From positions 4,194 through 68,193 of the forward strand of contig JAZDHZ010000036.1 in the NCBI GenBank assembly GCA_043805415.1: a stretch of DNA of 64,000 nt, written 5' to 3'. The stretch is from Candidatus Omnitrophota bacterium. Its GTDB lineage: Bacteria; Omnitrophota; Gorgyraeia; B26-G9. Shown piece by piece: positions 3,596 through 52,914 of this stretch (positions are counted from its first letter, which is position 1; every line of letters starts with the position of its first letter). A program made the position numbers and the translations under genes. The notes under the pieces are model-generated. The model was not told the DNA's origin, ran no database searches, and saw only the letters and a list, made by a program, of their open reading frames with translations.

Positions 3596-4753
3596 CTATC
3601 TCCTGCGATATTTCAAACTTTTAAACGAAAAATCCTGCGGCTGTTTTCCGTTTAGCTGCAGGCTAAGCATTCCCAGCATCTGGCCATTAACAACTTCCCC
3701 CCGCCATGAAGCGGTTCCCTCTGAAGATGTTTGAATTGTTTCCCAGATAAGTTTATTTCCTTCAATAACACTAGAATAATTAATATTGGGAAATTTAAGC
3801 TGGGAAAGATATCCGGAAATAAATTTTCCCCGGATAAAACTTATAATATCCGCCCGTGCCGGCGAACCGTCAATATTAAACAGTTGAATCTGCCATTCAG
3901 TATTATTAAGATCTTTTAAATCCTGCTCAATTACTGAAACAACTCCAGTATTTTGTTTATTTATATTTTTATTATAATTAAAATATAAATAAACTCCTGA
4001 GGCAGTTAGCGTAACCAGCAATAAAGCAGCTCCCACACTCATAAAATCGTTTTTTACTCCTGATTTTTTTTCTGCTGTTTCCAGCTGATCTATTTTTTTC
4101 CGCTGCATTTCTATCTCGTCTCTAACGCTATTGACAAAATCTCTTGAACCAATTACTCCCTTACGCTGCAGCTTTTTATAATGCTTTTTAAATTCATCAT
4201 CATCCTGCATCCGCTGCATAAACTCGCTGTAATTCTCTCCCACCAATCCATTAATAATGCTTTCTATCTCATTCTTGATATCCAGTCCTCTGTCTGAGGT
4301 TTGAGCATAATCAAGATACAAACCATAACTGCTGTTCTGATCAGTTTGTGCCTGTACTGATAAATTCAACCGCTTAGGATTAAGATGCATATAGGCTGTG
4401 AGATTCAACAGGATTTGCGGATCTTTTTCCACAACCGCTGCCTTGAATCTTTCCCGGAAAAGATGGCCTTTTCGATCATAGCAGCCATTGAAATATTTTG
4501 TATAAGAAGAAGTCAGATCATGCATCAGGGTGGAAACACTTGCTTTTTTATCAACCTCAATTAATAAATGCAAATGATTATACATTAAAGTATAAGCATA
4601 AAGTTTAACTCCGTATTGGTCTTTGTATTTTTTAAGCAATTCAAAATACATCCCGTAATCCCTCGCGTCTTTAAAAATCACCTGGTTTTGCAACCCATTA
4701 CAAGTAATATAATAAACTGAATTTTCAATATACACTCTTGGCAATCTTGGCAT
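3596..4753 (-). CDS. IS200/RAYT-like HUH (Y1) domain protein fused to a linker, a single TM helix and a ~140-aa extracytoplasmic C-terminal domain. The topology resembles a ToxR/CadC-type one-component regulator.
   Basis: The N-terminus YYITCNGLQNQVIF...LYAYTLMYNHLHLLIEV matches the Y1_Tnp/RAYT HUH motif. The catalytic-Tyr region YDRKGHLFRERF matches Y-x2-R-x-G-x-LW-x-R-F. A K/R-rich segment is followed by the TM helix VGAALLLVTLTASGVYLYF and then a C-terminal domain. RBS GGAG precedes the ATG. Confidence 0.8.
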   Translation of the reverse strand: MPRLPRVYIENSVYYITCNGLQNQVIFKDARDYGMYFELLKKYKDQYGVKLYAYTLMYNHLHLLIEVDKKASVSTLMHDLTSSYTKYFNGCYDRKGHLFRERFKAAVVEKDPQILLNLTAYMHLNPKRLNLSVQAQTDQNSSYGLYLDYAQTSDRGLDIKNEIESIINGLVGENYSEFMQRMQDDDEFKKHYKKLQRKGVIGSRDFVNSVRDEIEMQRKKIDQLETAEKKSGVKNDFMSVGAALLLVTLTASGVYLYFNYNKNINKQNTGVVSVIEQDLKDLNNTEWQIQLFNIDGSPARADIISFIRGKFISGYLSQLKFPNINYSSVIEGNKLIWETIQTSSEGTASWRGEVVNGQMLGMLSLQLNGKQPQDFSFKSLKYRRR

Positions 4754-4781: not shown

Positions 4782-4845
4782 CCTGATTATGCCTGGCACT
4801 TTTTAGGGTTTTACCTGATTATACCTGACACTTTTTAATATTCTC
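4782..4845 (-). repeat. Two tandem copies of a 32-bp element (CCTGATTATRCCTGRCACTTTTTA...) in the promoter region of the HUH-TM gene. On the coding (minus) strand the distal copy has a TATAAT -10 hexamer and the proximal copy has CATAAT.
   Basis: Direct repeat seen at 4782-4813 and 4814-4845. Minus-strand reading gives AAAAAGTGTCAGGTATAATCAGG and AAAAAGTGCCAGGCATAATCAGG immediately upstream of the RBS/ATG at 4753. Confidence 0.5.
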
Positions 4846-4875
4846 AAAAAAAAACCTCAGACAACTCGTCTGAGG
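4846..4875 (-). terminator. Rho-independent terminator: an 8-bp perfect stem (CCTCAGAC/GTCTGAGG, loop GAGTT) followed by a U9 run on the minus strand.
   Basis: The plus strand reads aaaaaaaaaCCTCAGACaactcGTCTGAGG. On the minus strand the hairpin is followed by TTTTTTTTT. It lies downstream of the wecA-small ORF transcription unit. Confidence 0.8.
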
Positions 4876-5114
4876 TAACAGTAACATTATACAGGGCAGC
4901 CTGCCAATCCGCATAAAATCACGGACGCATCAGCTTTGCCACATACCCATAAATACCCAAGGTATGCGATTCCGTAAGATCCAAATAATACAGAATGCCC
5001 TCGCGTTACCACGAGTTTGCCTTTTTCTACTAATATAAGTATACCACGCATTAAAGAATAAGTCAATGCTTTGTAAAAGTTTTTAATAGAACATGCTTTC
5101 AAATATAACTCCTT

Positions 5115-6445: not shown

Positions 6446-7069
6446 CTATTCAATATCCTTTAAAACTCTTACCGCGGAAAACCCTTCCGCGTATTTAACT
6501 CTTGCCTGAAAACCCCGAAAATTTGCCATTGAAGTCGCGATCTCAAGAATAGACAGATCTTCCACTCTAGTCCTGTTCACTTGAGAAGCATGTAATTTAA
6601 GTAAATTTAGTTTTTGCTTAAAAACCTTGCCAATATCAACAAAAATTTCCGGATTAAAATTCTGGGTAGTTGGCACCTCGTAATAAAGCACTTCCTTTAT
6701 ATATCTTGTTGCCGACAAACATGCCTTTGCCAAGGCCCGATGATCTTGATGCACATCATCCAGATAATTGATCAGCACTACCTGGGGATTTACTTTCTGA
6801 ATTATTTGTTCAATTTTATCAATCAGCTCCCGCACATTCATTAAGCGAGTATCTTCAAAGTTGCCCCAAAAAACTTCTTTTGCCCCCATATTTTTTGCGG
6901 ATTCTTCCTGTTCCTGGCAACGCACTTTAGGCTCTCCGCCAACCTCTCCGCAGGTAAGCACTAATAAATAAACATTATGTCCGGCTTGGGCATATTTAAG
7001 CAAACTTCCTCCGCAGCCGATTTCAATATCATCAGGATGCGCTCCGATTCCTAAAACATTCATCTGCAT
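6446..7069 (-). CDS. PIG-L/LmbE-family N-acetylglucosaminyl deacetylase.
   Basis: AHPDDIEIGCGG motif (the HPDDxE zinc site) and the conserved HQDH. The start was moved to the Met preceded by GGGGG (MQMNV...). Confidence 0.82.
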   Translation of the reverse strand: MQMNVLGIGAHPDDIEIGCGGSLLKYAQAGHNVYLLVLTCGEVGGEPKVRCQEQEESAKNMGAKEVFWGNFEDTRLMNVRELIDKIEQIIQKVNPQVVLINYLDDVHQDHRALAKACLSATRYIKEVLYYEVPTTQNFNPEIFVDIGKVFKQKLNLLKLHASQVNRTRVEDLSILEIATSMANFRGFQARVKYAEGFSAVRVLKDIE

Positions 7070-7149
7070 ACCCCCAATGGTCAATAGCTAATAGTTATGA
7101 ATTATGAGTTACAAGTTACGGGTTTTGAGTTTTTTAGAAATTAGTGCAA

Positions 7150-7292
7150 TTAGTAATTTGTTTTCTGTTTTCTGTTTTCTGTTTTCTGTTTTCTGCTTTC
7201 TGCTTTCTGCTTTTTGTTTTTTCTATTAGCTATGAGCTATCAGCCATGAGCCAAGCGCTTTTTGCTTTTCCTAATCGCTAAACGCTAATCGC
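7150..7292. repeat. Composite intergenic repeat element, copy A. It contains tandem heptamer arrays (TTTTCTG)x5-(CTTTCTG)x2-CTTTTTG at 7152-7207, an (AGCYATS)-type array, and the core TTTTTGCTTTTCCTAATCGCTAAACGCTAATCGCTATACGCTG.
   Basis: Read directly from the sequence. The same core recurs at ~24036-24140 and ~33571-33695. Confidence 0.85.
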
Positions 7293-7308
7293 TATACGCT
7301 GTCTTCTA

Positions 7309-8124
7309 TTAGCTCTCAACATCAGAACTTACTTCATTTATCAGATTTTCATCAACAATTTTCGCGTTTTTCCCAAAACCAGCGAATAAAGCTAAGTCAC
7401 ATAAGTGATTAATCCTTCTGGGAATACCCCCGGTTTTTTTATAAATAAGGCTATCTGTACCTTGAGCGAAAATGATTTGGCTTGCCCCGGCGACATTTAA
7501 TCGATGGCTGATATAATCGTTTGTTTCCTGTTCACTTAAAGGCCCAAGATGAAATTTGACTCCAATCCGCTGGGAAAACTGTTTATTAGAATCAATCATT
7601 GCTTTTAATTCCGGCTGGCCCAAGATTAACAGTGTGAGCAGAAACTGATTCTCGATTTGAAAATTTAACAGCAGTCTTAATTCTTCCCAAACCTTTGAAT
7701 CAGTAATAACATGCGCCTCATCAATAACAATAACAGTTTTCTTTCCATCGCGCATATTATTTTCCAGGATTTCACCTAAACGCTCAAGAACAACATTCAC
7801 TAAAACATCCTGCTTGTTTTTAGGCAAATCCCGCGCTCCAAGGCTATAGGCAATATGCATAAGTAATTCGGAATAATTCAAAAAAGGATTGGCAATAAAA
7901 GCGGTTTTATAAATATCCCGGTCAAGTTCTTTAAACAGAGTCTGTCCAAGTAAAGTTTTTCCGCAACCAAAAACTCCGGTAAGCAGCCCTGCCCCTTTAC
8001 CTTCGCTGACAACATAAAGCAATCTGGATAAACCTTCCTCATGCTGCGGAGAATGATATAGAAATTTTGGATCAGGAGTATTTTCAAATGGTTTTACGGA
8101 TAAACCCCAATGCGATTCGTACAT
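7309..8124 (-). CDS. ExeA/GspA-like AAA+ ATPase (AAA_22 family). It is a cytoplasmic domain only, with no peptidoglycan-binding region.
   Basis: N-terminus WGLSVKPF, Walker A GVFGCGKT and Walker B VIVIDEAH, arranged as in ExeA-family ATPases. Confidence 0.75.
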   Translation of the reverse strand: MYESHWGLSVKPFENTPDPKFLYHSPQHEEGLSRLLYVVSEGKGAGLLTGVFGCGKTLLGQTLFKELDRDIYKTAFIANPFLNYSELLMHIAYSLGARDLPKNKQDVLVNVVLERLGEILENNMRDGKKTVIVIDEAHVITDSKVWEELRLLLNFQIENQFLLTLLILGQPELKAMIDSNKQFSQRIGVKFHLGPLSEQETNDYISHRLNVAGASQIIFAQGTDSLIYKKTGGIPRRINHLCDLALFAGFGKNAKIVDENLINEVSSDVES

Positions 8125-10400: not shown

Positions 10401-11564
10401 TTAATCTTTGCGTTCAGTTGTTTCCTGGATTAAATCTTCATAAATTTGCGTAATCCTAGCTATGAATACCTCAACCGAATATTTTGCTAGCACATTTTTT
10501 TTCGCGTATTGACCCATTGCTAAGCGCTGGGCAGGATTTTTAATTAACATTTCAATCGCATCAATCAGCGCTTTTCGATCACTGGGATTAACCAGTATGC
10601 CGCTTTTCCCATGTTCAACTATTTCTGGAACTCCTCCAACTTTTGTGGCAATAACCGGCACTCCCAAACTTTGCGCTTCAATAAGTACAAGCCCAACTGC
10701 TTCATTTAAAGATGCCAGCACCATTAAATCCATTGCATGCATATAGTGCATGGGATTTTCCTGCCACCCGGTAAATGTAAACCGGTTGATTAATTTATTT
10801 TCCTTTACTTTTTGTTCTAATAAACCGCGCAGACTGCCTTCGCCGACTAAAACAAACCGCGTCTGGGAAAAATTTTGGGCAACTTCCATTGCCGCTTGAA
10901 TAAAATATTCCACACCTTTGATCGGTTCCAGCCTGCCGACCATGCCGATAACGATTTCCCCTGGCTTAATCATCAGTTTATCCCTGATAGCTGTTTCAAT
11001 CTGAACTTCAGGCATTTCCATTACAGTATTAACAACTTTTATCTTATCCGGACTGCAGATCCTGAATTTCGCCAGATCAATTTTCTCAATTTCAGTAAGG
11101 GTGATAATCTGTGTGGTCAGTTTAGACAAAAATCGCTCAATTACAACAATCAGATTGCTAAACCAGAGATTAAAATATCCGTAAAAGTTATGTCCATGCG
11201 AAGTATGGATAATTACTTTTACTTTAGCCAAAAATGCTGCCACTCTGCCTAAGGCTCCGGCTTTAGCTGTATGCGTGTGCACAATATCAAATTTATGTTT
11301 TCTAAAAATAAAATACAATTCCCAAAAAGCAAGAAAATCAAAAATTGGATTAATATTGCGGCGCAGACTATTTACTTGTATCCGATTAGCTTTAATCGCA
11401 TCAAAAAAAACCTGAGTTTTCTCCGTTAAAAAAGCGCTTGGTCCGCAAATAAACCTTAAGTCAAATCTGTCTTTATCCAGGTATTGGCTTAATATCCGCA
11501 CTATATCCGGCGAACCTCCCCAATCCATGCGCGTAATAACCTGAGCGATTTTTATTTTTTTCAT
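10401..11564 (-). CDS. GT-B fold glycosyltransferase, family 4 (GT4).
   Basis: C-terminal E-x7-E region (EAQSLGVPVIATKVGGVPEIVEHGKSGILV) and an N-terminal Gly-rich donor-binding region. Confidence 0.88.
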   Translation of the reverse strand: MKKIKIAQVITRMDWGGSPDIVRILSQYLDKDRFDLRFICGPSAFLTEKTQVFFDAIKANRIQVNSLRRNINPIFDFLAFWELYFIFRKHKFDIVHTHTAKAGALGRVAAFLAKVKVIIHTSHGHNFYGYFNLWFSNLIVVIERFLSKLTTQIITLTEIEKIDLAKFRICSPDKIKVVNTVMEMPEVQIETAIRDKLMIKPGEIVIGMVGRLEPIKGVEYFIQAAMEVAQNFSQTRFVLVGEGSLRGLLEQKVKENKLINRFTFTGWQENPMHYMHAMDLMVLASLNEAVGLVLIEAQSLGVPVIATKVGGVPEIVEHGKSGILVNPSDRKALIDAIEMLIKNPAQRLAMGQYAKKNVLAKYSVEVFIARITQIYEDLIQETTERKD

Positions 11565-11567
11565 ATT

Positions 11568-12725
11568 TTAATACCTATATAATTCCGTACACCGAATACA
11601 TGTGGCAAACAGCTGATTTGCCTTTAACATTTGGCGATATTGCACTGCTTTTTCACTGTTCCAAATATTTTTAAACTGATCCTCTCTAATATTTCCAAAA
11701 GCATATGTTGAATTAAGGCAAGGCCTTATTCCTCCATCCGGAAAAACATAAGCACATACCCAGGGACTTAAACAACGTTTAGGATATTCCTTGGGCAAAT
11801 AAGAAGGATTGTTATAATACTCTTTCAATCCCTGCTTACTAAGATTAGGATAAAAATCAACGCTAAAAGCATGTTTTTGGTTTAAAATTAACTGCATCTT
11901 AGCATAAAGCCTGTCCGGATCTATTTCCGGAGCAAAAACAAATCCCTGCCAATTATCTGAAGAACATTGTAATTGCTGATCATAAACTTTTTGCTTTTCT
12001 ATCAGATCTTGATTTAAAAAAATCAAATTATGATAAGTCAAGGAATCAGCGCCGATTTCCGCAGCCACATCAATCATTTTCTCTAACTGGAGATAATTAT
12101 ATTTGGTAATTGTGCATTGCAGGTTGATTAAAGGAAATTTAAGCCCTTTGGCTTTTTTATAACTCTGAATTTCTTTTAAGCCATCAGTAATTTTTTCAAA
12201 TAAACCCGGCATGCCGCGAATTTGATCATGCAAATCCTTGGGCCCGTCCAGAGACACATTAAGCTCATCTAAACCTGCCTGAACAATCTCAATTGCCTTA
12301 TCTTTAATCATTGCAGCATTGGTAATCATTAACACATGCATTTTTTTGGTTTTAATATATCTAATCAACTCTATACATTTAGGATAAAGCAGCGGTTCTC
12401 CGCCAAACAAAGTTATACTAGGCTTAAAATAACTTATTTGATCAATAAGATCCTGCAGCATATTAAAATCAAGTTCTTCCTTTACCTCGCCCGCAGATTT
12501 ATTTTTTGTAACTCCGCTTTCCCCCCATTGGCCGCACATCTTACAGCGCAAATTACATTTTTGGGTTAAAAACAAGGTTATTGACTCAGGATTAGGGCTT
12601 TTCCCTTTTCTCAGATAATAGGCTTTTAAAGCCTGGATTCGCTTATAGGCAATAGTTAAAGCATAAACAGGCTGTTTGCAAAATTTCGCCAGAAACCTGC
12701 GCAGATTTTTTAAAGGCAACAACAT
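11568..12725 (-). CDS. Radical SAM protein with a C-terminal SPASM (Cys-rich auxiliary cluster) domain.
   Basis: CNLRCKMCGQWG (CxxxCxxC) plus a C-terminal CLSPWVC...CLNS...CIRC cysteine array. Confidence 0.85.
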   Translation of the reverse strand: MLLPLKNLRRFLAKFCKQPVYALTIAYKRIQALKAYYLRKGKSPNPESITLFLTQKCNLRCKMCGQWGESGVTKNKSAGEVKEELDFNMLQDLIDQISYFKPSITLFGGEPLLYPKCIELIRYIKTKKMHVLMITNAAMIKDKAIEIVQAGLDELNVSLDGPKDLHDQIRGMPGLFEKITDGLKEIQSYKKAKGLKFPLINLQCTITKYNYLQLEKMIDVAAEIGADSLTYHNLIFLNQDLIEKQKVYDQQLQCSSDNWQGFVFAPEIDPDRLYAKMQLILNQKHAFSVDFYPNLSKQGLKEYYNNPSYLPKEYPKRCLSPWVCAYVFPDGGIRPCLNSTYAFGNIREDQFKNIWNSEKAVQYRQMLKANQLFATCIRCTELYRY

Positions 12726-17758: not shown

Positions 17759-17779
17759 TGTGATAAAAAAGGACACAAT

Positions 17780-17804
17780 GTCACCAAGACACAAAGTCAC
17801 CAGG
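17780..17804 (-). promoter_or_regulatory. Direct repeat GTCACCAAG-N7-GTCACCAGG (16-bp periodicity) just upstream of the gspE -35. Candidate activator site, shared with 33462-33486.
   Basis: Seen in sequence. A near-identical arrangement occurs upstream of the PQQ/minor-pilin operon. Confidence 0.45.
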
Positions 17805-17884
17805 TAAAAGCGTTGGGTCAATGGCTGATAGTAAAAGCTAATAATGCATAACTAGTAACTATCAAGATGATAGGCAAATTTTAC

Positions 17885-18068
17885 GCTGACACAAATTTTA
17901 TTGATGTAAACATCAATAACGGTAAATCCGCTTTGTATTCTTGGCACTTGCGGAACTCTCCCGCCTAAAAGCGGCGGGAGCAGACAGGTCCTCTCGTACC
18001 CTAAAGGCTCCCAAACGAGACTCACAGCGAACAAATTCAAAAGTCGTAACTGAAAAATTTGTCGAATC
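17885..18068 (-). ncRNA. Candidate structured RNA or rRNA-derived fragment in the znu operon 3' region. It contains a sequence resembling the 23S rRNA domain VI sarcin-ricin loop (GGUACGAGAGGACC inside a GGGAGC...GCUCCC stem), an alternative 8-bp hairpin, and a weak terminator-like hairpin.
   Basis: Minus-strand reading gives ...GUGAGUCUCGUUUGGGAGCCUUUAGGGUACGAGAGGACCUGUCUGCUCCCGCCGCUUUUAGGCGGGAG.... The universally conserved SRL is AGUACGAGAGGACC. The flanks loosely resemble E. coli 23S ~2590-2740. No protein-coding frame is convincing. Confidence 0.35.
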
Positions 18069-18071
18069 ATC

Positions 18072-18929
18072 TTAGTTATTATTGATTATTTTGGGGAATG
18101 TTGCTGCTGCAACTGAAATCACATAAAAGCCCACAGACAATAAAACGATTGTCGCACCGGAGGCAGTGCCCCAATAATAGGATACCACCAACCCGATAAC
18201 TCCTGAAACAAGACTAAAAACAACTGACCAGAATGTGTAATCGCGGGTATTGCGGCTGAAATTACGGCTGGCCGCGGCTGGTAAAATCAGCAAGGAATTA
18301 ATAATCAGCACTCCCACTAAACGAATTGAAAGCATCACTACTATAGCCAGCAATATCGTAAAGCTTGTTTCCAGCCAAAACACTTTTATCCGCCGGCTGC
18401 GGGCTAAGGAGCTGTTCACGCTGGTAAGAATCAAAGCATTTCCCGCGAAAAACCAATAAACCAGCACAATAAAAAACATGCTTACCAGAAACCTGATCTC
18501 CGCGGGGCTGACCGCGAGAATATCTCCGATAAGATAGGTTGTGTATTTTACAAATCCTCCCTGACGGCTTAAGATCGTTATTCCCAAAGCTACCATAAAC
18601 GCGAGTAACACTCCGAGAATTGTATCAGTGGAAGCGCGGGTCAGTCCTTTGAGGATATTAACAAAAACCGCCAAAAATACAGCCAGAATAATCATCGGCA
18701 AAGTCGGGTCATGAAACCCGCATAAAACTCCGATAGCCAGCCCGGCAAGCGCCGAATGGCCAAGCACATCGGTAAAAAAAGCCAGCCGATTGCTGACAAC
18801 CATGGTGCCGAGCAAAGCATAAACCGGAGTAATTACCAGTACAGCCAAAAGCGCGTTTTTCATAAAAATATAACGCGCCCAATCAAAAGGCAGAAACATA
18901 TCAACTAACTTATACCAGATCTCGATCAT
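18072..18929 (-). CDS. znuB: ABC-3 family metal (Zn/Mn) transporter permease, ZnuB-like.
   Basis: ~285 aa polytopic membrane protein in an operon with the ZnuC-like ATPase and the ZnuA-like binding protein. Confidence 0.82.
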   Translation of the reverse strand: MIEIWYKLVDMFLPFDWARYIFMKNALLAVLVITPVYALLGTMVVSNRLAFFTDVLGHSALAGLAIGVLCGFHDPTLPMIILAVFLAVFVNILKGLTRASTDTILGVLLAFMVALGITILSRQGGFVKYTTYLIGDILAVSPAEIRFLVSMFFIVLVYWFFAGNALILTSVNSSLARSRRIKVFWLETSFTILLAIVVMLSIRLVGVLIINSLLILPAAASRNFSRNTRDYTFWSVVFSLVSGVIGLVVSYYWGTASGATIVLLSVGFYVISVAAATFPKIINNN

Positions 18930-19735
18930 AATGGCCTTTCAAAATATAATTCCGGCAAAGAAGAAATATTCCATAAACTTGGACCAAATGCCTTAATCAG
19001 CTTCTCATCGGATAGAACATCTTTCGGCGCGCCTTCAGCCACAACCGATTGATTTAACAGTACAACCCGGTCAACATAACGCGAAATACCCGGCAAATCA
19101 TGGGTAACCAGAATCACTGAAATATCATGCTGTTTTCTTAAATCGCGCACAAGCTGATAAAAAAGCGCCAGGCCTTTTACATCAACCCCGCTGCTCGGCT
19201 CATCTAATAATAACAATTCCGGCCTGTTAGTCATCGCTATGGCCAGCAAAACCCGCTGCAGCTCTCCTCCGGATAATTCTCCGATCTTTCGCTTGATTAA
19301 ATGATCCGCGGAAAATACTTCCAGAATCTTTTTTATATCCTCGATAATTTTCCAGCTAAGCCCCAGCCAAACCGGCTGATTGCTTATTGCCGCGGCAACT
19401 AAATCCGCGACACTGACCGGAGAATCCAGATCAAACTGGAGTTTTTGCGGAACATAACCCATGCGCGGCCTGCGGCGCTGGCCTCCGCCGACAAGAGAAA
19501 CCATTTCTCCGCGATATGGCACTTCGCCTAAGATCGCCCTGAGCAAACTTGTTTTTCCCGCGCCATTTGGCCCGACAATCGCGATGATTTCTCCGCAATG
19601 AATATGCAGGTCAACATTATTTAAAATCAGATTGCCGCCAAGATTAACTGTCAGGCCATTAATCTTGATACAGCAATGCGGGCAAACCGCGGCGCTGGCA
19701 GGCAGAGAATGATTTTGATTATTGGGAGAAGGCAT
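18926..19735 (-). CDS. znuC: Metal ABC transporter ATP-binding protein, ZnuC-like.
   Basis: Walker A GPNGAGKT, LSGGELQRV signature, LLLDEP Walker B. The N-terminal Cys/His-containing extension is uncertain. Confidence 0.82.
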   Translation of the reverse strand: MPSPNNQNHSLPASAAVCPHCCIKINGLTVNLGGNLILNNVDLHIHCGEIIAIVGPNGAGKTSLLRAILGEVPYRGEMVSLVGGGQRRRPRMGYVPQKLQFDLDSPVSVADLVAAAISNQPVWLGLSWKIIEDIKKILEVFSADHLIKRKIGELSGGELQRVLLAIAMTNRPELLLLDEPSSGVDVKGLALFYQLVRDLRKQHDISVILVTHDLPGISRYVDRVVLLNQSVVAEGAPKDVLSDEKLIKAFGPSLWNISSLPELYFERPL

Positions 19736-20624
19736 TTTTTAAAACCTCAAGATTTTTTTCCATAATATTTATATAAGCATTAAGCTCATCAGGCCCGATA
19801 ACCGCCGGATCCAAAGTATAAACCATCGCTCCGGTCTCATTGGCAATTGTTCTGGCTGCCCTGCCGGGATATTGCGGCTCGCTAAACAGTGCTTTAATCC
19901 CGGCTTTTTTAATAATATCCACTGTGTCCGCCAATTCCCTGGCGCTGGGTTCACTTCCCGGCTCTCTTTCAATAACCGCCGCGATCTCAAATCCAAACTC
20001 CTGGGCAAAATAAGGAAATGCTTCATGAAAGGTAATAATCTTTCTTCCTCTATACTTTGCCAGCTCCAATCGCATTTTCTGTAGCAGTGTTTTTAATTTA
20101 GCTACATACTCAGCTGTATTCTTACGGTATATCTGCGCGTGCGCAGGGTCGATTTTTCCCAAATTAGTACCAAGATTATTAACTTCTATAATCGCGTTAG
20201 AAATACTCACCCAGACATGCGGATTATCGCCTTCACCGCCTTCGCCTTTAATCAGCGGGATGCCCTCGGCTAACTGGAATATCTTTATTTGAGGATATTG
20301 AGTAATTATCCGGTTAAGAAAAGATTCCATGCCCGCGCCATTCGCCACAAAAATATCCGCCCCGGACAATTTCTTCATATCATTGGTTGTTATTGTATAA
20401 TCATGCAGACATCCGGTCAGCGGAGGCGTAAGGTTAGTAACTACCACCCCCGGCACATCCTTGGCCACATTCCGCGCCATGATATACATGGGATAAAAAG
20501 ACGCGACAATCTTAAGCGGCTTGCCCTTTGCCTTATCCAAAGATTGGGCGCGCGCGATTAACCCAGACGAAAATACTATTATACTCCCGAAAATTAAACA
20601 TATTGCTATGGTTTTTTTAAGCAT
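19719..20624 (-). CDS. znuA: Periplasmic metal-binding protein of the TroA/ZnuA family.
   Basis: Signal peptide, TroA-like fold motifs, and an acidic/His flexible region GEGGEGDNPHVW. The start was set at the Met preceded by AGGAGG. Confidence 0.82.
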   Translation of the reverse strand: MLKKTIAICLIFGSIIVFSSGLIARAQSLDKAKGKPLKIVASFYPMYIMARNVAKDVPGVVVTNLTPPLTGCLHDYTITTNDMKKLSGADIFVANGAGMESFLNRIITQYPQIKIFQLAEGIPLIKGEGGEGDNPHVWVSISNAIIEVNNLGTNLGKIDPAHAQIYRKNTAEYVAKLKTLLQKMRLELAKYRGRKIITFHEAFPYFAQEFGFEIAAVIEREPGSEPSARELADTVDIIKKAGIKALFSEPQYPGRAARTIANETGAMVYTLDPAVIGPDELNAYINIMEKNLEVLKNAFSQ

Positions 20625-20876
20625 AACTTGCCTCCTATTACGTATTCTCCAGCTGTCTGGTCGGCACACGATGATTTATAAAAACTTCTGTTGGTACAGT
20701 AGTTATCCAAAACGCTTTTTTTCTTTTTTTTCTATTTGGACTACTTTGGCATTATGCACAGTAATCACTAGTTCCCCATACTCCAATTGACTGAGGGCAC
20801 GGGTAATTTCATTCATTATATTTTGATCTGGGGATTTATTATTACTTTTTTCTATCATATTAAATACTTTTCGAAA

Positions 20877-21446
20877 TTATATCTTTTTTCCAACCTGAGC
20901 TTTATTTATGTAAAAAAGCGTATCCAGTCGTTTTTGTCCATCTTCATCAATAAACTGTTCTTTAGTGAAATGAAATATTCCGGTTACTTCCACCAAAGCC
21001 GGAAAAGGCGGCGAAATATTTTTGCCTTCATTCATATCAACTATAACAGCATTAAATATACTCGGGGGATTTCCCCAACTACAGCACGGACAACCATAGG
21101 CATTTTTGCACACAACAAAATTGTTAACCGGATCATTAATATAATAGGCTTCTGGCGGCAGCAAAAGATATCCTGTAATTTTGACCAGTTTACCGTTTAA
21201 TGCTTGAATATTCTGGGGAATCTCTTTTAAGTCAGACTCATCCTCATTAACATACTTTTCTACTTGCCCTAATAAATTAAAATCAATATTAATAATATCC
21301 TGTTTAACCGGCAAAACCTCTTTATTAGAAGCGCCCAAGGCCAATCCATTACAAACGGCTATTAAAAAAATAAACGCAGCGATAAATGTCCGGATATAAT
21401 TGTTTGGGTTTTTAATTTTTAAGTAAATCAACTTTTTTCCTGCCAT
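20877..21446 (-). CDS. Secreted DUF3299-like protein, a family often adjacent to metal ABC transporters.
   Basis: N-terminal signal/TM. The segment KITGYLLLPPEAYY...CPCCSWG resembles the DUF3299 core. Confidence 0.45.
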   Translation of the reverse strand: MAGKKLIYLKIKNPNNYIRTFIAAFIFLIAVCNGLALGASNKEVLPVKQDIINIDFNLLGQVEKYVNEDESDLKEIPQNIQALNGKLVKITGYLLLPPEAYYINDPVNNFVVCKNAYGCPCCSWGNPPSIFNAVIVDMNEGKNISPPFPALVEVTGIFHFTKEQFIDEDGQKRLDTLFYINKAQVGKKI

Positions 21447-22038
21447 GGCTTTCCTTAGGATAATATTTTTGTTCTTCCTGTTCTATTTGTTTTACTTTAA
21501 CCACATTCCCTAATTCTTGATATGACCTTAAAAGTATCGTAAGCGCGCCGCGGTGATAATTCAGGAAATCGCCAGTAGTTGTTTTCCCTTTGTCCGGACC
21601 CGCGACTCTTATTTGTTCAAAATACGGTAAAGCTCTGGCAAATTCTTTTTTCGTGAAATAAGCCATACCCAGATCAAAACAAGCCCCTTTATTCATCGGA
21701 TTTAAAGAAACCACTTTTTCATACGTTGCGATCGCTTCATCTATCTCTCCGTTTTGCTCATAAGCATATCCTAATGATTTCAATGCCGGAATATTTTTCC
21801 GGTCAATAAAAACAATTTTCTTACACACGCGTATCGCGTTATTATAAGAACCGCCATTAAAATACGCGGCTACCCGCGTAAGCATCTGTTGGATTATAAA
21901 CGGCCTTAAAACCAACAACAGTCCTGAAATAATAAACACGCTCATTACCCAACGTATAATCAAACCGGAAAAACGATGACCATGAGCATGCCCACAAGCG
22001 CAGCCTTTTGAATGAGTTTTATGTTCCATATTATTCAC
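21412..22038 (-). CDS. Membrane-anchored TPR-repeat protein with an N-terminal His/Cys-rich metal-binding tail.
   Basis: HKTHSKGCACGHAHGH, one TM helix, then TPR-like repeats (AYEQNGEIDEAIATYEKVVSLNP...). Confidence 0.55.
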   Translation of the reverse strand: MNNMEHKTHSKGCACGHAHGHRFSGLIIRWVMSVFIISGLLLVLRPFIIQQMLTRVAAYFNGGSYNNAIRVCKKIVFIDRKNIPALKSLGYAYEQNGEIDEAIATYEKVVSLNPMNKGACFDLGMAYFTKKEFARALPYFEQIRVAGPDKGKTTTGDFLNYHRGALTILLRSYQELGNVVKVKQIEQEEQKYYPKESHGRKKVDLLKN

Positions 22039-22772
22039 GCGATCATTAAGAGAAATAAACCGGAAACTATCAAAATATTCCCGGCAACAAAACTTATGGC
22101 TTCTTCCAGTTTCTGCGTCCGCGGCCTTATATGCTTTAGGATGCTGGTCGAAAATCCAATCACTAATATCGGGATACTTTGGCCTAGCGCGAAACTAAAA
22201 AAAACCAAGCCTGAATAAAGTAATGAGCCTTTAATCACAACCAAACTGGCTATGACCATTAACACTGCCCCGCAACAAGGACATGCCGGCATTTCCAGAA
22301 AAGCAAACAGCATCCCAAAGATAAATGCCGAATGAAGATTATTTGCCTGCTTTACGGTTGCCGCGCAATGTTTATAAAACCCACTTTTCCCTATAGGAAT
22401 CAGCCCGGAAAAAAACAATCCGCCGCTAATTAATAAAATGCCTAAAGTAAAATAAAGATATTGACTGATCTGAATAAGTTTTCCGGCTAAACCGGAAACA
22501 GTTCCAAATAATAATCCAAGTATCGTGTAACTTACAATCAGCCCGCAGGCAAATGCTGTCGAAAGAAATATCCCTTTCTTTTTCGACTCGGATGTTGCCG
22601 CTACATATCCCCATAGTACCGGAATCCGGGCGATTGTGCAGGAACTCAATGAAGCAACCGCGCCGGCAAAAGCAACCGCGAGCAAAACCACAGGCAATGA
22701 GCCGTGAGCAATTATATTTTGAATAAAAGCAATCAATGAAACCCCCGCACAAATACAATTCCTATATCCCAA
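22035..22772 (-). CDS. DsbD/CcdA-family polytopic membrane protein (thiol-disulfide transporter-like).
   Basis: Six or more TM helices with Cys in TM1 (SSCTIARIP) and a later PACPCC, as in the DsbD_2/CcdA family. Confidence 0.55.
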   Translation of the reverse strand: MGYRNCICAGVSLIAFIQNIIAHGSLPVVLLAVAFAGAVASLSSCTIARIPVLWGYVAATSESKKKGIFLSTAFACGLIVSYTILGLLFGTVSGLAGKLIQISQYLYFTLGILLISGGLFFSGLIPIGKSGFYKHCAATVKQANNLHSAFIFGMLFAFLEMPACPCCGAVLMVIASLVVIKGSLLYSGLVFFSFALGQSIPILVIGFSTSILKHIRPRTQKLEEAISFVAGNILIVSGLFLLMIA

Positions 22773-22915
22773 AAATCCTCTTTTCTCATTTACACTTTTT
22801 CCTAATTCTCATAACCGCTGATTTAAGCATAATCCTCACCCATTTCCAGCCCTTAATTAGAATAGCCCCGTAAAACAAACCGCATAATCCTGTATTCCCA
22901 CAATATTGACACATA

Positions 22916-23332
22916 TCAGCGCTTTTTGGTTAACTCATTAAAAATTTTTTCAGAAACAAATTCCGCGAGTGAATAGTTGCCCGATACCACGACAACCTCC
23001 GAATGGCCTTGATTGACAGGATTAACGAGTATGCAAACTTCAGTGGTATCAATACAGGAATGAAACGATCTGTCAAAACGTTGCGCGACAATCAGAGAAC
23101 GTTTTATATCCTTTTTTATTATTTCGGACTGCATTACTTCTAATATTTTTAGCGTTTTCTCAAATACAGCTTCGCTGCCGGCAGCAAATTCATGCGTATA
23201 TTTTTTCTCAGCATTAGCTATATCGCCAATGGTATATATGCCCAAGAATTCTTGCCGAAGCTCCATCGCAGAACACCCTGAAACAATACCAAACAATCCC
23301 ACCAATAAAATAATTCTAAAATCTGTTTTCAT
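22916..23332 (-). CDS. Predicted lipoprotein of unknown function.
   Basis: Signal peptide with a lipobox-like VSGC. Confidence 0.45.
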   Translation of the reverse strand: MKTDFRIILLVGLFGIVSGCSAMELRQEFLGIYTIGDIANAEKKYTHEFAAGSEAVFEKTLKILEVMQSEIIKKDIKRSLIVAQRFDRSFHSCIDTTEVCILVNPVNQGHSEVVVVSGNYSLAEFVSEKIFNELTKKR

Positions 23333-23389
23333 GATAGACTCTCCATCATAAAATGAAAATAACTTCTATTCAGAAATCAAAAAAATTCT

Positions 23390-23803
23390 TTACTTAAAGC
23401 AAGCGTCACATATGCCGTTAACCTGCATAAAATGGCTAACAACTCTATAACCATTGATCTTCTTGGTGTCATTAATCGCGCAATCATTGATTTCGTCAAC
23501 CTTGCCGCACTTAATACAAGTGATATGATGATGGTGGTAACCGCTGTTAACAGCTGAACAAAGCCCGTAATGCTTCTTGCGATCGAATTGTTGTATACGT
23601 GTTAGGATTCCGCAATTAGCAAGACTCTCAAGATTTCGGTATACGCTCGGCAACCCGCATTGATCAAAATCCTTGCGCAATTCATTCCAGACTTCTTCGG
23701 GTGTTAAATGGCTATCGCAGTAAATAAATAACTCAACAATCGCTTTTCTGCGGGGTGTTAGCTTTAACCCATTCTCTCTTAATCTCTCTAAATAGTTATC
23801 CAT
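23390..23803 (-). CDS. zur: Fur-family metalloregulator, probably Zur.
   Basis: Winged HTH plus HHHHxxCxxCG and a C-terminal CxxC. The start was set at MDNYLERL, preceded by AAGGA. It heads a divergent locus with znuABC nearby. Confidence 0.82.
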   Translation of the reverse strand: MDNYLERLRENGLKLTPRRKAIVELFIYCDSHLTPEEVWNELRKDFDQCGLPSVYRNLESLANCGILTRIQQFDRKKHYGLCSAVNSGYHHHHITCIKCGKVDEINDCAINDTKKINGYRVVSHFMQVNGICDACFK

Positions 23804-24035
23804 GTTTTTCCTTAAATAGAAATTATTTCTGTTTATAATATCACCTAAAAAACACCTTGTCAATTAAATTAAGTTTGTTTTTAGCTTTGTTCGCTCAGTG
23901 TCCAAACTGGCAAAATAAAACCCTTGCAACTTATTACGTTACAGGCTTAGAATTTGACTCCCCAAAAATACAAAACGTATTTACCCCAATTTATGAGAAG
24001 CTTAAAAATTCCCCCATCATCTTTGACAAAGTTCG

Positions 24036-24140
24036 CTTTTCATGCTTTTGTTTTTCTGCTTTTGACCATCAGCCATCGACTATTAGCTATAAGCCAAGCG
24101 TTTTAAGCTTTTGTTTTTCTAAACGCTATACGCTATCCGC
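24036..24140. repeat. Composite intergenic repeat element, copy B (TTTTCTG-type, AGCYAT-type and CGCTAWW-type heptamers with the shared core).
   Basis: TTTTGTTTTTCTGCTTTTG...TTTTAAGCTTTTGTTTTTCTAAACGCTATACGCTATCCGCTATACGCTG matches copies A and C. Confidence 0.8.
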
Positions 24141-24162
24141 TATACGCTGCTTTCTTGAACTC

Positions 24163-28156: not shown

Positions 28157-29931
28157 AAAAATATAAAATAGTTTTTATTGGGGCATTACTCTTGCTGATA
28201 TTTAATCCCTTAAATATCTTTGCTCAGGAATACACTGAGACAAGCGCGGAATCTGAGGACCTAATTTCTTTAAGTTTTCAGGATGCTGATATAAATCAAG
28301 CGATAAAGGTATTAGGCGATTTAACCGGTACAATAATAATTCCCAATGAAGATCTAAAAGGCACGATTTCCATAGTAAGCATGGAAAAAGTTAAACCAGA
28401 CACAGTAATTAATGTCCTGGAGAGCGCGTTAATGATCAGAGGATTTACCGTGGTAAAATCAGGAGAAGCTTTAAAGATAGTCCCTATCTCTGATATTAAG
28501 CAATCAAATGTCGAAGTTCAAATCGGAAGCTGGCCTGGGTTTATAAAAGATCAGGATATTGTGATTACACAAGTAATGCCGCTGAAATACTCTTCGGCGA
28601 TTAAAATTAAGAATGAACTTCAATCCTTAATCGGAAAACATGGAAATATTCTGGCTAATGAACGCACAAATACTATTATTATAACCGATAGCTCTTCAAA
28701 TATAAAACGCTTAGCTACTATAATTTCCCAGGTTGACCGGCCTTTGCCTGCCGCGATGCAAGTAAAAACATTTGTGGTTAATTATGGCGACGCGGTAAAA
28801 ATAGCAAAAATTTTAAATGACCTTTCCAAAGAAGATAAAGAGGCCAGATATCCGGAATTCAGTGAGCTTGGTTTAGGCGATATTCCTTTAGAGGTTTTTG
28901 GCGGAATAGAAGCTTACTCTGAGGAAGAAACAAATTCGATAGTGGTCGCTACTGCTCTGGTTAACTTCCCGGCCATTGAGCGTTTAATAAATAAACTCGA
29001 TGTCTTCCCTCCGCAAGCAATGATTGAAGTAGTGCTTATGGATGTTACCCTAAGTGATGATTTAACCATGGGAGTTGAATATGGTTCCTCAACTAACCCA
29101 ACACTTACAACCGAAGGAATTAAATCCGGGAGCAATGATCAGAATATATTCCACTCTCTGCTTAATTTATCGACTGAAGCTTCCACGCAAGGATTTACTT
29201 ATCGAATTTTAAGTCAAAATGAGCGGACCAATCTCTTGGGATTTATTTTAAAAACTCAGGAAAATACTAAGGTCCTGTCTACTCCCCGGATTTTAGCATC
29301 AAATAACCAGGAATCTTCGATTACTGTGGGACAGGAAATTCCGATTATTGAATCATCAGTCACGGATTTAGTTAATAATGTTACAACCGTGAATTTTAAA
29401 TACCAGGATGTCGGGCTGGGACTTAAAGTCACTCCGCGCATAAGCCAGGATGGTTTTGTTAATTTAAAAGTTCACGCTGAGTTAAAAGACTTAAGCGCTA
29501 AAACTTTATTTGACGCGAGTATCATTAATAAACGCGAAGCCAATGCCACTGTTATGGTCCCGGATGGATATACGGTTGTCCTTGGCGGGCTAATGCGTGA
29601 CAATGATAGTATAATTGAAAACAAGGTGCCTTTACTTGGGGACATCCCTTTTTTAGGGAATTTATTCAAGAAAACTAAAACCACAACATTAAAAACAGAA
29701 CTGCTTATATTTCTCAGTCCCAAAATACTTAAAAGCATAAAAGAACTTCAGGAAATTACCCAAGCATCTAAAGATAAACTGGATATTATCGGACAAGCGC
29801 AAACAACTCAAGAGTTAAAATCAGCTGTAAAAACTACCGTTGATCCTAAGGCTAAAAAACTAATCAAGGAAAACCAAAAAATAAAGAATAAACATAAGAA
29901 AAATAAACTGGAAAAAGAAGAGAAAAAATGA
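28153..29931 (+). CDS. Secretin (PilQ/GspD family) with a Lys-rich C-terminal tail.
   Basis: Signal peptide, N-terminal secretin domains, and the C-terminal secretin signature VVLGGLMRDNDSIIENKVPLLGDIPFLGNLFK. Confidence 0.9.
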   Translation: MKKYKIVFIGALLLLIFNPLNIFAQEYTETSAESEDLISLSFQDADINQAIKVLGDLTGTIIIPNEDLKGTISIVSMEKVKPDTVINVLESALMIRGFTVVKSGEALKIVPISDIKQSNVEVQIGSWPGFIKDQDIVITQVMPLKYSSAIKIKNELQSLIGKHGNILANERTNTIIITDSSSNIKRLATIISQVDRPLPAAMQVKTFVVNYGDAVKIAKILNDLSKEDKEARYPEFSELGLGDIPLEVFGGIEAYSEEETNSIVVATALVNFPAIERLINKLDVFPPQAMIEVVLMDVTLSDDLTMGVEYGSSTNPTLTTEGIKSGSNDQNIFHSLLNLSTEASTQGFTYRILSQNERTNLLGFILKTQENTKVLSTPRILASNNQESSITVGQEIPIIESSVTDLVNNVTTVNFKYQDVGLGLKVTPRISQDGFVNLKVHAELKDLSAKTLFDASIINKREANATVMVPDGYTVVLGGLMRDNDSIIENKVPLLGDIPFLGNLFKKTKTTTLKTELLIFLSPKILKSIKELQEITQASKDKLDIIGQAQTTQELKSAVKTTVDPKAKKLIKENQKIKNKHKKNKLEKEEKK

Positions 29932-33403: not shown

Positions 33404-33461
33404 ACAAACTCCTCGATTATAGTATAAACTCTAAACAGTAAATTATAAACATAAATAACAA

Positions 33462-33490
33462 GTCCCCAGGACAAAAGGTCACCCGGTCAC
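33462..33490 (-). promoter_or_regulatory. Direct repeat GTCCCCAGG-N7-GTCACCCGG(+GTCAC) upstream of the PQQ/minor-pilin genes, the same motif family as 17780-17804. TATAAT-like -10 elements lie downstream of it.
   Basis: Seen in sequence. Same 16-bp periodicity and orientation as the gspE-upstream copy. Confidence 0.45.
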
Positions 33491-33570
33491 AAGTAAACAG
33501 CCAACGGTCGATAGTCAATAGCCGATTCGTTAGGCAAAAATTCTCTTTGAGCGGCGGTCTAGAATCAAGC

Positions 33571-33695
33571 ATTTTTGTTTTTCTGCTTTTCCTAATCGCT
33601 AAACGTTTATCCTGAGCAAAGTCGAAGGGCTATTCGCTAATCGCCGCTTTTTTTGTTTTTCCTAACCGCTAAACGCTAATCGCTATCCGCTGCTT
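33571..33695. repeat. Composite intergenic repeat element, copy C. It has two core copies (...TTTTTCTGCTTTTCCTAATCGCTAAACG... and ...TTTTTGTTTTTCCTAACCGCTAAACGCTAATCGCTATCCGCTG) and abuts the giant gene stop.
   Basis: Read directly from the sequence. Matches copies A and B. Confidence 0.8.
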
Positions 33696-52640: not shown

Positions 52641-52702
52641 TTTACCCTTCCCCACCAACATATTTAAATACTATTTATAATTGATATAAAACACTAAACT
52701 AA

Positions 52703-52883: not shown

Positions 52884-52914
52884 CTAACATTTCAAGCAAT
52901 GCTCATTATGTTAT
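52884..52914. promoter_or_regulatory. 29-bp imperfect palindrome TAACATTTCAAGCAATGCTCATTATGTTA (left copy). It overlaps the 3' end of the HUH-HTH gene, ~180-210 nt upstream of the giant-gene sigma-54 -24 element.
   Basis: Outer TAACAT/ATGTTA and inner AGCAATGCT dyad symmetry. A 28/31 match to the copy at 53844-53874. Confidence 0.5.

Follow-up and report, generated by a model that had tools for sequence, protein, structure and literature searches.

Heptad-periodic modules of a Candidatus Omnitrophota genome and their possible relation to PF05635 cassettes

Among described systems, the intervening sequence (IVS) of 23S rRNA genes is the closest to the repeats reported here. In Coxiella, this element is described as selfish, its terminal inverted repeats form a stem that is cut by RNase III, and its 5′ region carries an A/G-rich putative Shine-Dalgarno sequence followed by tandem GACAGAT and GACAGAA heptamers before the S23p start, the number of heptamers differing between strains (PMC4990558). 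The family of the encoded protein, PF05635, is homologous to Avd, the accessory protein of diversity-generating retroelements (PMC10053308). Here, a dispersed composite repeat built of 7-nt units is described from a 64-kb stretch of a Candidatus Omnitrophota contig (JAZDHZ010000036.1, positions 4,194 to 68,193; 38.5% G+C; hereafter the window, with its own numbering), in which the homologues of the ParA-like protein at 75-85% identity are also Candidatus Omnitrophota. With confidence a little above even, the window copies are considered gene-less members of a heptad-periodic element family whose full form is a PF05635 cassette. Such a cassette consists of a 5′ heptad arm, an A-rich leader, a ~120-aa PF05635 gene (Avd-like four-helix bundle), and a reverse-complement 3′ arm, and the window module, read on the minus strand, has the form of a 5′ arm and leader.

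As in the IVS (Coxiella, Leptospira, Brucella, Xanthomonas-type protein), complementary terminal repeats of the cassettes described below bracket a ~120-aa four-helix-bundle open reading frame (ORF), and both kinds of element are regarded as selfish; additionally, the variable-number tandem repeat (VNTR) unit of the window, AACAGAA on the gene strand, is one base off the GACAGAA of Coxiella. The elements here differ from the IVS in lying in protein-coding operons and not in 23S helix 25 or 45, in arms that are overtly heptad-periodic over their whole length, and, for the window copies, in having neither the ORF nor the second arm, and hence no RNase III-cleavable stem. All window copies lie between protein genes; no rRNA and no other Rfam family was found in the window at the gathering threshold or E ≤ 1 (0 families, and 0 in 18 related loci), nor did a tRNA and tmRNA search of the window return any.

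Long heptanucleotide simple sequence repeats (SSRs) form another relevant class, which is reported to be the most abundant long-SSR class in prokaryotes, possibly since ∼7 nt contact the polymerase (Mrazek 2007, summarised in PMC4679880). The cyanobacterial short tandemly repeated repetitive (STRR) sequences and the TAACTGA repeats of Beggiatoaceae, Cyanobacteria, and Bacteroidetes resemble the present element as intergenic tandem 7-nt units, often mosaic and often beside coding regions, which are scattered phylogenetically and suspected of horizontal spread and a role in rearrangement; no PF05635 link was found in the parts consulted of these accounts (PMC4679880; PMC4692102). The present element differs in that it is a discrete module, in which the number of units is fixed, the 5-nt cores are conserved, and the nn positions are free, and in that it occurs as single arms, inverted doublets, and gene-bearing cassettes. 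Repetitive extragenic palindromic (REP) sequences, their inverted doublets (REPINs), and the REP-associated tyrosine transposases (RAYTs) are similar in that short extragenic repeats sit at 3′ gene ends or inside operons, occur as singlets and hairpin-forming inverted doublets, and have as partner a small, vertically inherited gene between inverted copies. However, the partner here is PF05635 and not a Y1 HUH transposase, the Y1 genes of the window are not flanked by modules, and the unit holds no palindromic hairpin, whereas REPs are without heptad periodicity. Finally, the small dispersed repeats of Nostoc punctiforme, described by Elhai et al. (2008), are reportedly ∼20-30-nt dispersed intergenic repeats often found inside tandem heptamer tracts, their mobility inferred from presence or absence at orthologous sites and no associated gene proposed; they belong to another phylum and have other sequences than the present element.

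The heptad module in the window and in other genomes

The 26-nt string CGCTAAACGCTAATCGCTATNCGCTG occurs on the plus strand of the window at 7276-7301 and 33667-33692 (0 mismatches each) and at 24124-24149 (3 mismatches), where shuffled sequences lead to an expectation of 0. The full module, a T-rich leader followed by CTAWn(CGCTAWn)3CGCTG, occurs exactly three times (7259-7301, 24107-24149, and 33650-33692; copies A, B, and C). A module profile returned the same three copies (E 2e-13 to 1.5e-12) and fragments at 33584-33605 and 33630-33644; the profile was built from 18 module copies including the three of the window, whose own scores are thus by construction, and its informative outcome was that no further module copies were found elsewhere in the 64-kb window. 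The string matches and the profile search together confirm the original prediction of a dispersed composite heptamer element in three copies. Identity at lag 7 rose to 0.93 against a background of 0.26, and tracts of this kind were confined to 7062-7324, 24097-24158, 33413-33469, and 33641-33699, besides a low-complexity stretch at 29866-29919 that was flagged at several lags and not 7 alone. A fourth, inverted, and partial copy (copy D, ∼17806-17860) corresponds to the (AGCYATN)n-GCCAAGCG-TTTT part. The string TTTTGTTTTTCTGCTTTT is exact only in copies B and C, is alone not beyond chance (12/100 shuffles), and has as its counterpart in copy A an expanded TTTTCTG run.

On the minus strand, core module A reads CAGCG(nnTAGCG)3nnTAGG followed by AAAAGCAAAAA and begins 7 nt past the upstream stop codon, and core module C begins 2 nt past the stop codon of the gene for a 2057-aa repeat protein. 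Copy C lies between this gene and a PQQ-propeller gene, and copy B occupies the divergent spacer between a Fur-family gene (minus) and a merR-parA operon (plus), where its module stops 22 nt short of a -35-like TTGACA (plus-strand TTGACA-17-TACTAT). A promoter role for copy B was rejected, this promoter being intact in relatives without any array.

To place the module among other genomes, three CGCTAnn units followed by CGCTG were sought in one genome per species, which yielded at least 118 loci from many phyla (loci are denoted L with a number). Among the matches listed, 57 of 122 arrays had mixed nn dinucleotides, and 52 of these 57 consisted of exactly three CGCTAnn units and a preceding CTAnn without CG (C, T, and A kept in 49, 44, and 42 of the 57, respectively); the module CTAnn(CGCTAnn)3CGCTG is thus discrete and not a free-running repeat. 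Omnitrophota modules have W at the first n and often a T-rich leader. The array start (the CAGCG end) lay 2-8 nt past the stop of an ORF with a length of 100 aa or more in 24 of the 122 matches listed, and an arm beginning at this distance from the upstream stop is seen in window copies A and C and in L119, L077, L100, L053, and L118. Again among the matches listed, an inverted arm stood on the expected side of 19 arrays and on the wrong side of 3; 17 of the 19 were gene-less doublets with arms 23-128 nt apart, and the other two had strictly matching arms 380-433 nt apart that held the PF05635 gene. The short doublets of relatives fold (z -3.2 to -3.8) through arm-to-arm pairing and not through palindromic units; no hairpin or other fold was found for the window copies (DNA z +0.12, +0.93, +2.33; RNA z +0.67, -0.94), nor was a second complementary arm, all window copies being single arms.

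In three alphaproteobacterial genera (L027, L044, L052), atpC, the gene for the ATP-synthase epsilon subunit, is directly preceded by a gene-less hairpin doublet of the form (GCGAATA)n...(TATTCGC)n; the gene on the other side of the doublet is presumably atpD, judging by the order common in such operons and by a C-terminal motif read by eye.

PF05635 genes between inverted heptad arms

When all ORFs within 2.5 kb of the arrays were clustered, the top recurrent neighbour family was PF05635 (23S rRNA intervening-sequence or four-helix-bundle protein; E 1e-35 to 1e-37, with a weak bAvd-like match besides), present at 7 of the at least 118 loci, specifically in Microgenomates, Nitrospira, two Alphaproteobacteria, Saprospiraceae, Gemmatimonadales, and Kaiserbacteria. 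In 7/7 of these CGCTA-derived loci, the PF05635 gene lies between inverted heptad arms. The 5′ arm of L103, CAGCGgtTAGCGttTAGCGaaTAGCGtaTAGAAATA, stands directly before the ATG, and its 3′ arm is CTAAACGCTACACGCTAATCGCCATACGCT; in L029 and L115, the order is nuoC, arm, PF05635 gene, arm, nuoD, with the cassette gene directly upstream of nuoD, the first gene presumably nuoC from operon order, and the arms the same as those of the doublets upstream of atpC. The atpD-atpC doublets and nuoC-nuoD cassettes may mark sites at which transcripts of core bioenergetic operons are processed between cistrons.

Nine further PF05635 loci, representing 5 distinct insertion sites, were sampled without the CGCTA pattern, by protein similarity or synteny, except that a locus on a viral contig (L173) came from a scan with the control heptad GCCTA, is hence not fully unbiased, and had its arms read by eye. 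All 9 have heptad-periodic inverted arms. Five (L132, L213, L217, L221, and L222) share one insertion site between a radical-SAM/SPASM gene and a gene for a family 4 glycosyltransferase (GT4), and three (L218, L223, and L225) are at three other sites. The window has the radical-SAM/SPASM-GT4 site in its empty form. Measured in eight loci, the two arms are separated by 365-495 nt and show 70-93% complementarity; the arm heptads vary by lineage (nnTAGGG, GGTTnTC, CGTAAAT, and nnTAGGC, the last being GCCTA), and the 5′ arm starts at or just past the upstream stop codon. Inverted heptad arms enclose every PF05635 gene examined, across several phyla and five or more unrelated operon contexts, and the cassettes, in several cases also gene-less arms, sit directly past stop codons inside operons.

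The leader of L132, GTAGGGAAAAGATAAAAGCA-ATG, resembles that of window copy A, TTAGGAAAAGCAAAAAG, and that of L119 is TTAGGAAAAGCAAAAGATAAAACAGG; the leaders of L213 and L103 are likewise similar to the window leader AAAAGCAAAAAG. An arm with an A-rich leader is present in the window, as CAGCG(nnTAGCG)3nnTAGG plus AAAAGCAAAAAG on the minus strand, and tandem CAGAAAR heptamers accompany it in copy A only. In L213 (positions 1157-1210; JAGLQQ01, Omnitrophota RS_8_62), the 3′ arm is translated as a new GT4 N-terminus, MISSTPNPKLQTLSPK, and the GT4 start codon overlaps the stop of the cassette gene (ATGA), the inserted element rebuilding the gene start.

Several observations weigh against a cassette origin of the window copies. 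No PF05635 gene was found in the 64-kb window by tBLASTn with 5 to 9 PF05635 proteins; the cassettes found in the closest Omnitrophota relatives are armed with CCCTA-type or other heptads and not CGCTA; ∼80% of the CGCTAnn arrays among the matches listed are single arms with no gene nearby; and in other genomes the module is not uniformly oriented towards the genes beside it. The ORF-based orientation statistics are crude, noisy in high-GC loci, and show a trend only. Furthermore, CGCTA was rejected as a specially favoured, universal motif, two control heptad patterns being as frequent or more so in viral contigs (5 versus 34 and 10 loci); other heptad cores are at least as common there, and heptad periodicity is therefore generic. 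CGCTAnn single arms could be an independent phenomenon that PF05635 genes merely exploit. CGCTAAT and CCCTAAT units are mixed within one arm of L209. As the nearest cassettes are not CGCTA-armed, the link rests on the shared architecture, the similarity of the leaders, and the CGCTA-armed cassettes of other phyla.

A PF05635 remnant in the four spacers was considered and rejected: the resemblance of LGTCGTL to LGSCGEL at 17940-18071 had an E of 0.06 and was lost with default settings. In the literature, no description was found of heptad-armed PF05635 cassettes outside rRNA or of gene-less derivatives, and searches with the literal repeat strings returned chance primer matches only.

The recurrence of PF05635 also bears on a second part of the original prediction, that the family may be the REP-like partner of RAYT-like HUH proteins encoded in the window. 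It is hardly credible that the modules are REPs or REPINs mobilised by these Y1 transposases. The window does contain two Y1_Tnp genes (3596-4753 and 52911-53801), the first of which is syntenic in L119, L120, and L132 (69-84% identity), and domesticated RAYTs tend to conserved synteny; arrays are also found preferentially at 3′ gene ends, and inverted module doublets in relatives fold like REPINs. However, the window copies are unstructured (z +0.1 to +2.3), neither Y1_Tnp gene is flanked by a module, no module is closer than ∼2.4 kb to a Y1 gene in the window, the counterparts of the first gene in L119, L120, and L132 have none nearby, and no CGCTA/TAGCG pairs were found near any of these genes. 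L120 and L132 keep the Y1 gene without a module in 8.8 kb, the same core occurs in many phyla, unlike REPs, which are lineage-specific partners of their RAYT, and the recurrent gene between inverted heptad arms is PF05635 and never Y1. With the copies unfolded and no module within ∼2.4 kb of a Y1/HUH gene, the REP-RAYT reading is therefore not supported. The synteny implies that the first Y1_Tnp gene behaves as a resident, vertically inherited gene and not as an active insertion sequence (IS).

Both Y1_Tnp genes (IS200-like HUH) have long C-terminal extensions, the first apparently with a hydrophobic segment (by eye). Upstream of the first, at ∼4790-5100 on the minus strand, lies a ∼200-nt non-coding stretch, GGCAAACTCGTGGTAACGCGAGGGCA...GGCAAAGCTGATGCGTCC...GGCAGGCTGCCC, that ends in a strong terminator hairpin, CCTCAGACGAGTTGTCTGAGG plus T9, and is highly conserved in L119, L120, and L132; two direct repeats, AAAAAGTGYCAGGYATAATCAGG, follow it. 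The stretch matches no Rfam family and may represent a structured RNA not described before.

Turnover of orthologous spacers and the copy A tract

To compare locus A, 41 loci encoding AAA_22 relatives were used. In three distant ones (L124, L125, and L129; 68-72% identity), the AAA_22 and PIG-L genes are 15-35 nt apart, a spacing that is taken as the ancestral operon junction. In L119 (92% protein identity), CAGCGgATAGCGATTAGCGaaTAGCGATTAGGAAAAGCAAAA lies 7 nt past the stop codon, in the same position as in the window, and is followed by unrelated heptamers and then by a ∼125-nt miniature inverted-repeat transposable element (MITE)-like element; in L120 (91%), there is no module, and only the MITE-like element is present, in opposite orientation. 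At locus B, L211 (89% ParA identity) has no array, L209 (96%) has an inverted arm and two tandem modules in the same place, and the window has a single module together with a 6.4-kb Fur-family/znuABC block, which relatives lack at this site and which is bracketed by the inverted AGCYATN heptad parts of copies D and B. The orthologous spacers at the two loci differ completely at 89-96% protein identity. The spacers at loci A and B therefore turn over rapidly, and the module core does not. Cassettes and arms are present, absent, or replaced between close relatives.

The core itself is strongly conserved. Between window A and L119, it is identical at 38 of 41 positions, with 33/33 non-n positions identical and the 3 differences on n positions, in comparison with third codon positions of the flanking genes that are 56-63% identical and a remaining spacer that cannot be aligned; additionally, the nn series AA, AT, TA/TC recurs in window A, window C, and L119. 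Heptad cores are thus kept while n positions and the surrounding spacer change, which indicates purifying selection or recent copying and does not fit neutral decay in place.

Such conservation could also be expected of an operator-like array in which each 7-nt unit binds one subunit of a DNA- or RNA-binding host protein and which serves a host function at gene ends, much like the omega-repressor heptad operators or the UAG-N4 repeats to which HutP binds. The conserved 5-nt core with two free positions per unit, the fixed unit number, the strength of conservation against the neutral background, and the occurrence of both direct and inverted arrangements are in keeping with an operator, which is nevertheless improbable: none of the orthologous sites examined requires the module, module orientation with respect to genes is variable, no candidate regulator other than PF05635 recurs beside arrays, and PF05635 lineages use unrelated heptads, which fits element-specific recognition better than one host factor.

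On the minus strand, the gene order is AAA_22, copy A, a PIG-L deacetylase gene, and a WecA-like GT4 gene; alignment with orthologues places the true PIG-L start at the ATG at 7063, with the ribosome-binding site (RBS) GGGGG ahead. The spacer of 224 nt equals 32 heptamers in one unbroken register, so the limits first assigned to the element, 7150-7292, enclose a real element but are slightly narrow. Along the tract, the unit shifts stepwise, from TATGAGT... through TTTTCTG, CTTTCTG, and TATNAGC to CGCTAWn, and the tract ends ∼20 nt ahead of the RBS of the next gene. Tandem Repeats Finder reported 7159-7220 as period 7 with 8.9 copies and 94% matches, non-coding, in which respect copy A resembles the long heptanucleotide SSRs. 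Five perfect TTTTCTG units occupy 7161-7195 and are followed by two CTTTCTG and one CTTTTTG, so that the earlier count of eight perfect or near-perfect units was correct; on the gene strand, the run reads (CAGAAAG)2(CAGAAAA)5. The leader heptad GTTTTTCTGCTTTT occurs once in copies B and C and is locally expanded in copy A. The run is absent from the closest relatives, L119 and L120, and has no second example among the 212 loci compared, relatives of locus A included; it would be an expansion of the leader heptad that is both recent and private, in parallel with the leader run of the Coxiella IVS.

These features are also those of ordinary heptanucleotide SSR or STRR tracts, that is, of slippage and drift in place, with likeness among copies due to composition and gene conversion, no PF05635 link, and no function. 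Plain slippage of this kind is the main rival to the cassette reading, although it is judged unlikely on balance. It accords with the unbroken 7-nt register over 224 nt with gradually changing units, the homogeneous 5- and 2-unit blocks, the general abundance of heptanucleotide SSRs, the other heptad cores that are as frequent as CGCTA or more so, and the absence of PF05635 genes from the window. Slippage accounts for the periodicity and the VNTR but leaves the fixed module, the conservation of that module, and the gene association unexplained, because free-running slippage and neutral decay predict none of these: across phyla, the core module keeps to one length and is sharply bounded at its 5′ end, all its non-n positions are identical to those of a relative whose third codon positions are ∼40% different, the same nn series is found in window A, window C, and L119, and the same architecture brackets PF05635 genes.

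The original prediction further proposed that slipped-strand length variation in the run retunes promoter spacing ahead of the glycan operon. The first half is reasonable, the homogeneous blocks of 5 and 2 units and the hypervariability of the spacers between close relatives making a slipped-strand substrate plausible. The second half is not supported: the tract lies between co-directional genes of a long minus-strand cluster, no sigma-70-like hexamers or promoter-like sites were found on the gene strand at 6800-7600, the repeat is neither between -35 and -10 hexamers nor coding, and the distant orthologous loci join both genes by only 15-35 nt. A promoter or terminator role at copy A was rejected, with no site on the gene strand for either. 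It is also very improbable that copy A is a phase-variation device in which the number of TTTTCTG units alters the expression of the PIG-L and WecA-like genes. The perfect run of 5 + 2 units does lie 98 nt upstream of the PIG-L start codon, the spacer is wholly different among relatives at 91-92% protein identity, and surface-glycan genes are frequent phase-variation targets; however, the genes were ancestrally joined in one operon, it is not obvious how 7-nt steps in an untranslated spacer between cistrons would have an on/off effect, no terminator-like site is present, and the run is unique among the loci compared. Any effect of copy A on these genes would be exerted through a longer intercistronic mRNA and not through promoter geometry.

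Table 1. Coordinates of the repeat features of the window and of associated sites.
Feature	Position	Strand	Description
Copy A	7085..7308	+	spacer from AAA_22 stop (7309) to RBS/start region of PIG-L gene
TTTTCTG run	7161..7216	+	(TTTTCTG)5(CTTTCTG)2CTTTTTG
AGCYATS-type quasi-palindromic heptads, copy A	7224..7258	+	TATTAGC TATGAGC TATCAGC CATGAGC CAAGCGC
Core module A	7259..7301	+	T-rich leader TTTTTGCTTTTC + CTAAT CGCTAAA CGCTAAT CGCTATA CGCTG
AAA_22 gene	7309-8124	-	flanks copy A
Empty site, radical-SAM/SPASM / GT4 genes	11564..11568	-	3-nt gap between 11568-12725 and 10401-11564
Partial inverted copy D	17806..17860 (approx.)	-	only (AGCYATN)n-CCAACGCTTTT part
Copy B	24036..24149	+	T-rich part 24046-24063, AGCYATN heptads 24064-24105, core module 24107-24149
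End fragment of ~125-nt MITE-like element	33533..33556	+	GGCAAAAATTCTCTTTGAGCGGCG
Copy C′, truncated leader + module	33573..33611	+	TTTTGTTTTTCTGCTTTTCCTAATCGCTAAACGTTTATC
Core module C	33650..33692	+	leader + CTAAC CGCTAAA CGCTAAT CGCTATC CGCTG

Other features accompany the copies. The MITE-like element has terminal inverted repeats, GGCAAAAA...TTTTTGCC, and was located at L119:4917-5040 and ∼200-326 and, in opposite orientation in the orthologous spacer, at L120:∼4830-4956; window copy C has an end fragment only, and the three co-occurrences of this element and a heptad module all have the two side by side. A tandem repeat of 16 nt, GACACAAAGTCACCAA x1.9 (17772-17802), adjoins copy D, and the copy D spacer also holds a GC-rich hairpin, CTCCCGCC-TAAAAGC-GGCGGGAG, at 17940-17990. 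The block at 17766-24150 encodes a Fur-family regulator, a DsbD-like protein, a TPR protein, ZnuA, a ZnuC-like ABC ATPase, and an ABC-3 permease; the genes on its two sides, for a T2SS-E ATPase and merR-parA, are directly adjacent and divergent in L209 and L211. Beyond copy C, two overlapping giant ORFs on the minus strand (33695-52661; 2057 and 4286 aa) are built from a 357-nt (119-aa) repeat, whose more than 25 copies share 60-87% identity, and may be a single gene broken by a frameshift or an assembly error.

Implications for heptanucleotide repeats and PF05635 genes

The element of the window is best placed with the IVS/PF05635 cassette system, as a variant that is gene-less and extra-ribosomal and that overlaps the heptanucleotide-repeat class. 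If the cassette reading holds, modules would spread as non-autonomous copies of cassettes, or remain behind after them, slipped-strand mispairing would let the tracts around them grow and drift 7 nt at a time, the heptads would be recognised by the PF05635 protein, and paired arms in mRNAs would be processed by RNase III. Single, unpaired arms cannot form an RNase III-sensitive stem, and the window copies are therefore probably neutral passengers.

A broader and rather doubtful proposal is that PF05635 cassettes with heptad arms are pan-bacterial selfish elements outside rRNA, which insert past stop codons, spawn gene-less doublets and singlets, and have lineage-specific heptads recognised by a pentameric Avd-like protein. 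Doublets and singlets would then arise in the manner of MITEs from IS elements or of REPINs kept by RAYTs, part of the STRR-like heptanucleotide tracts would be both debris and raw material of the cassette system, and paired arms would act as RNase III sites, e.g., in atpD-atpC and nuoC-nuoD of Alphaproteobacteria. It is speculation that one subunit of the pentamer binds each heptad, CGCTA modules having five CTA/CTG units and other arms ∼3 to 7.

To our knowledge, PF05635 is a very common small gene without known function, known mainly from 23S insertions and as an Avd homologue. Heptanucleotide repeats are reported to be abundant, with their origin and 7-nt unit unexplained (PMC4679880; PMC4692102). 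Gene-less arms such as those of the window combine the cassette architecture with a strong sequence constraint. The repeat ahead of the glycan genes is probably a passenger and not a designed switch. If true, the general relationship of cassette and arm would make heptanucleotide repeats and PF05635 one testable element system and would explain why hypervariable operon junctions and points of rearrangement are marked by such tracts.

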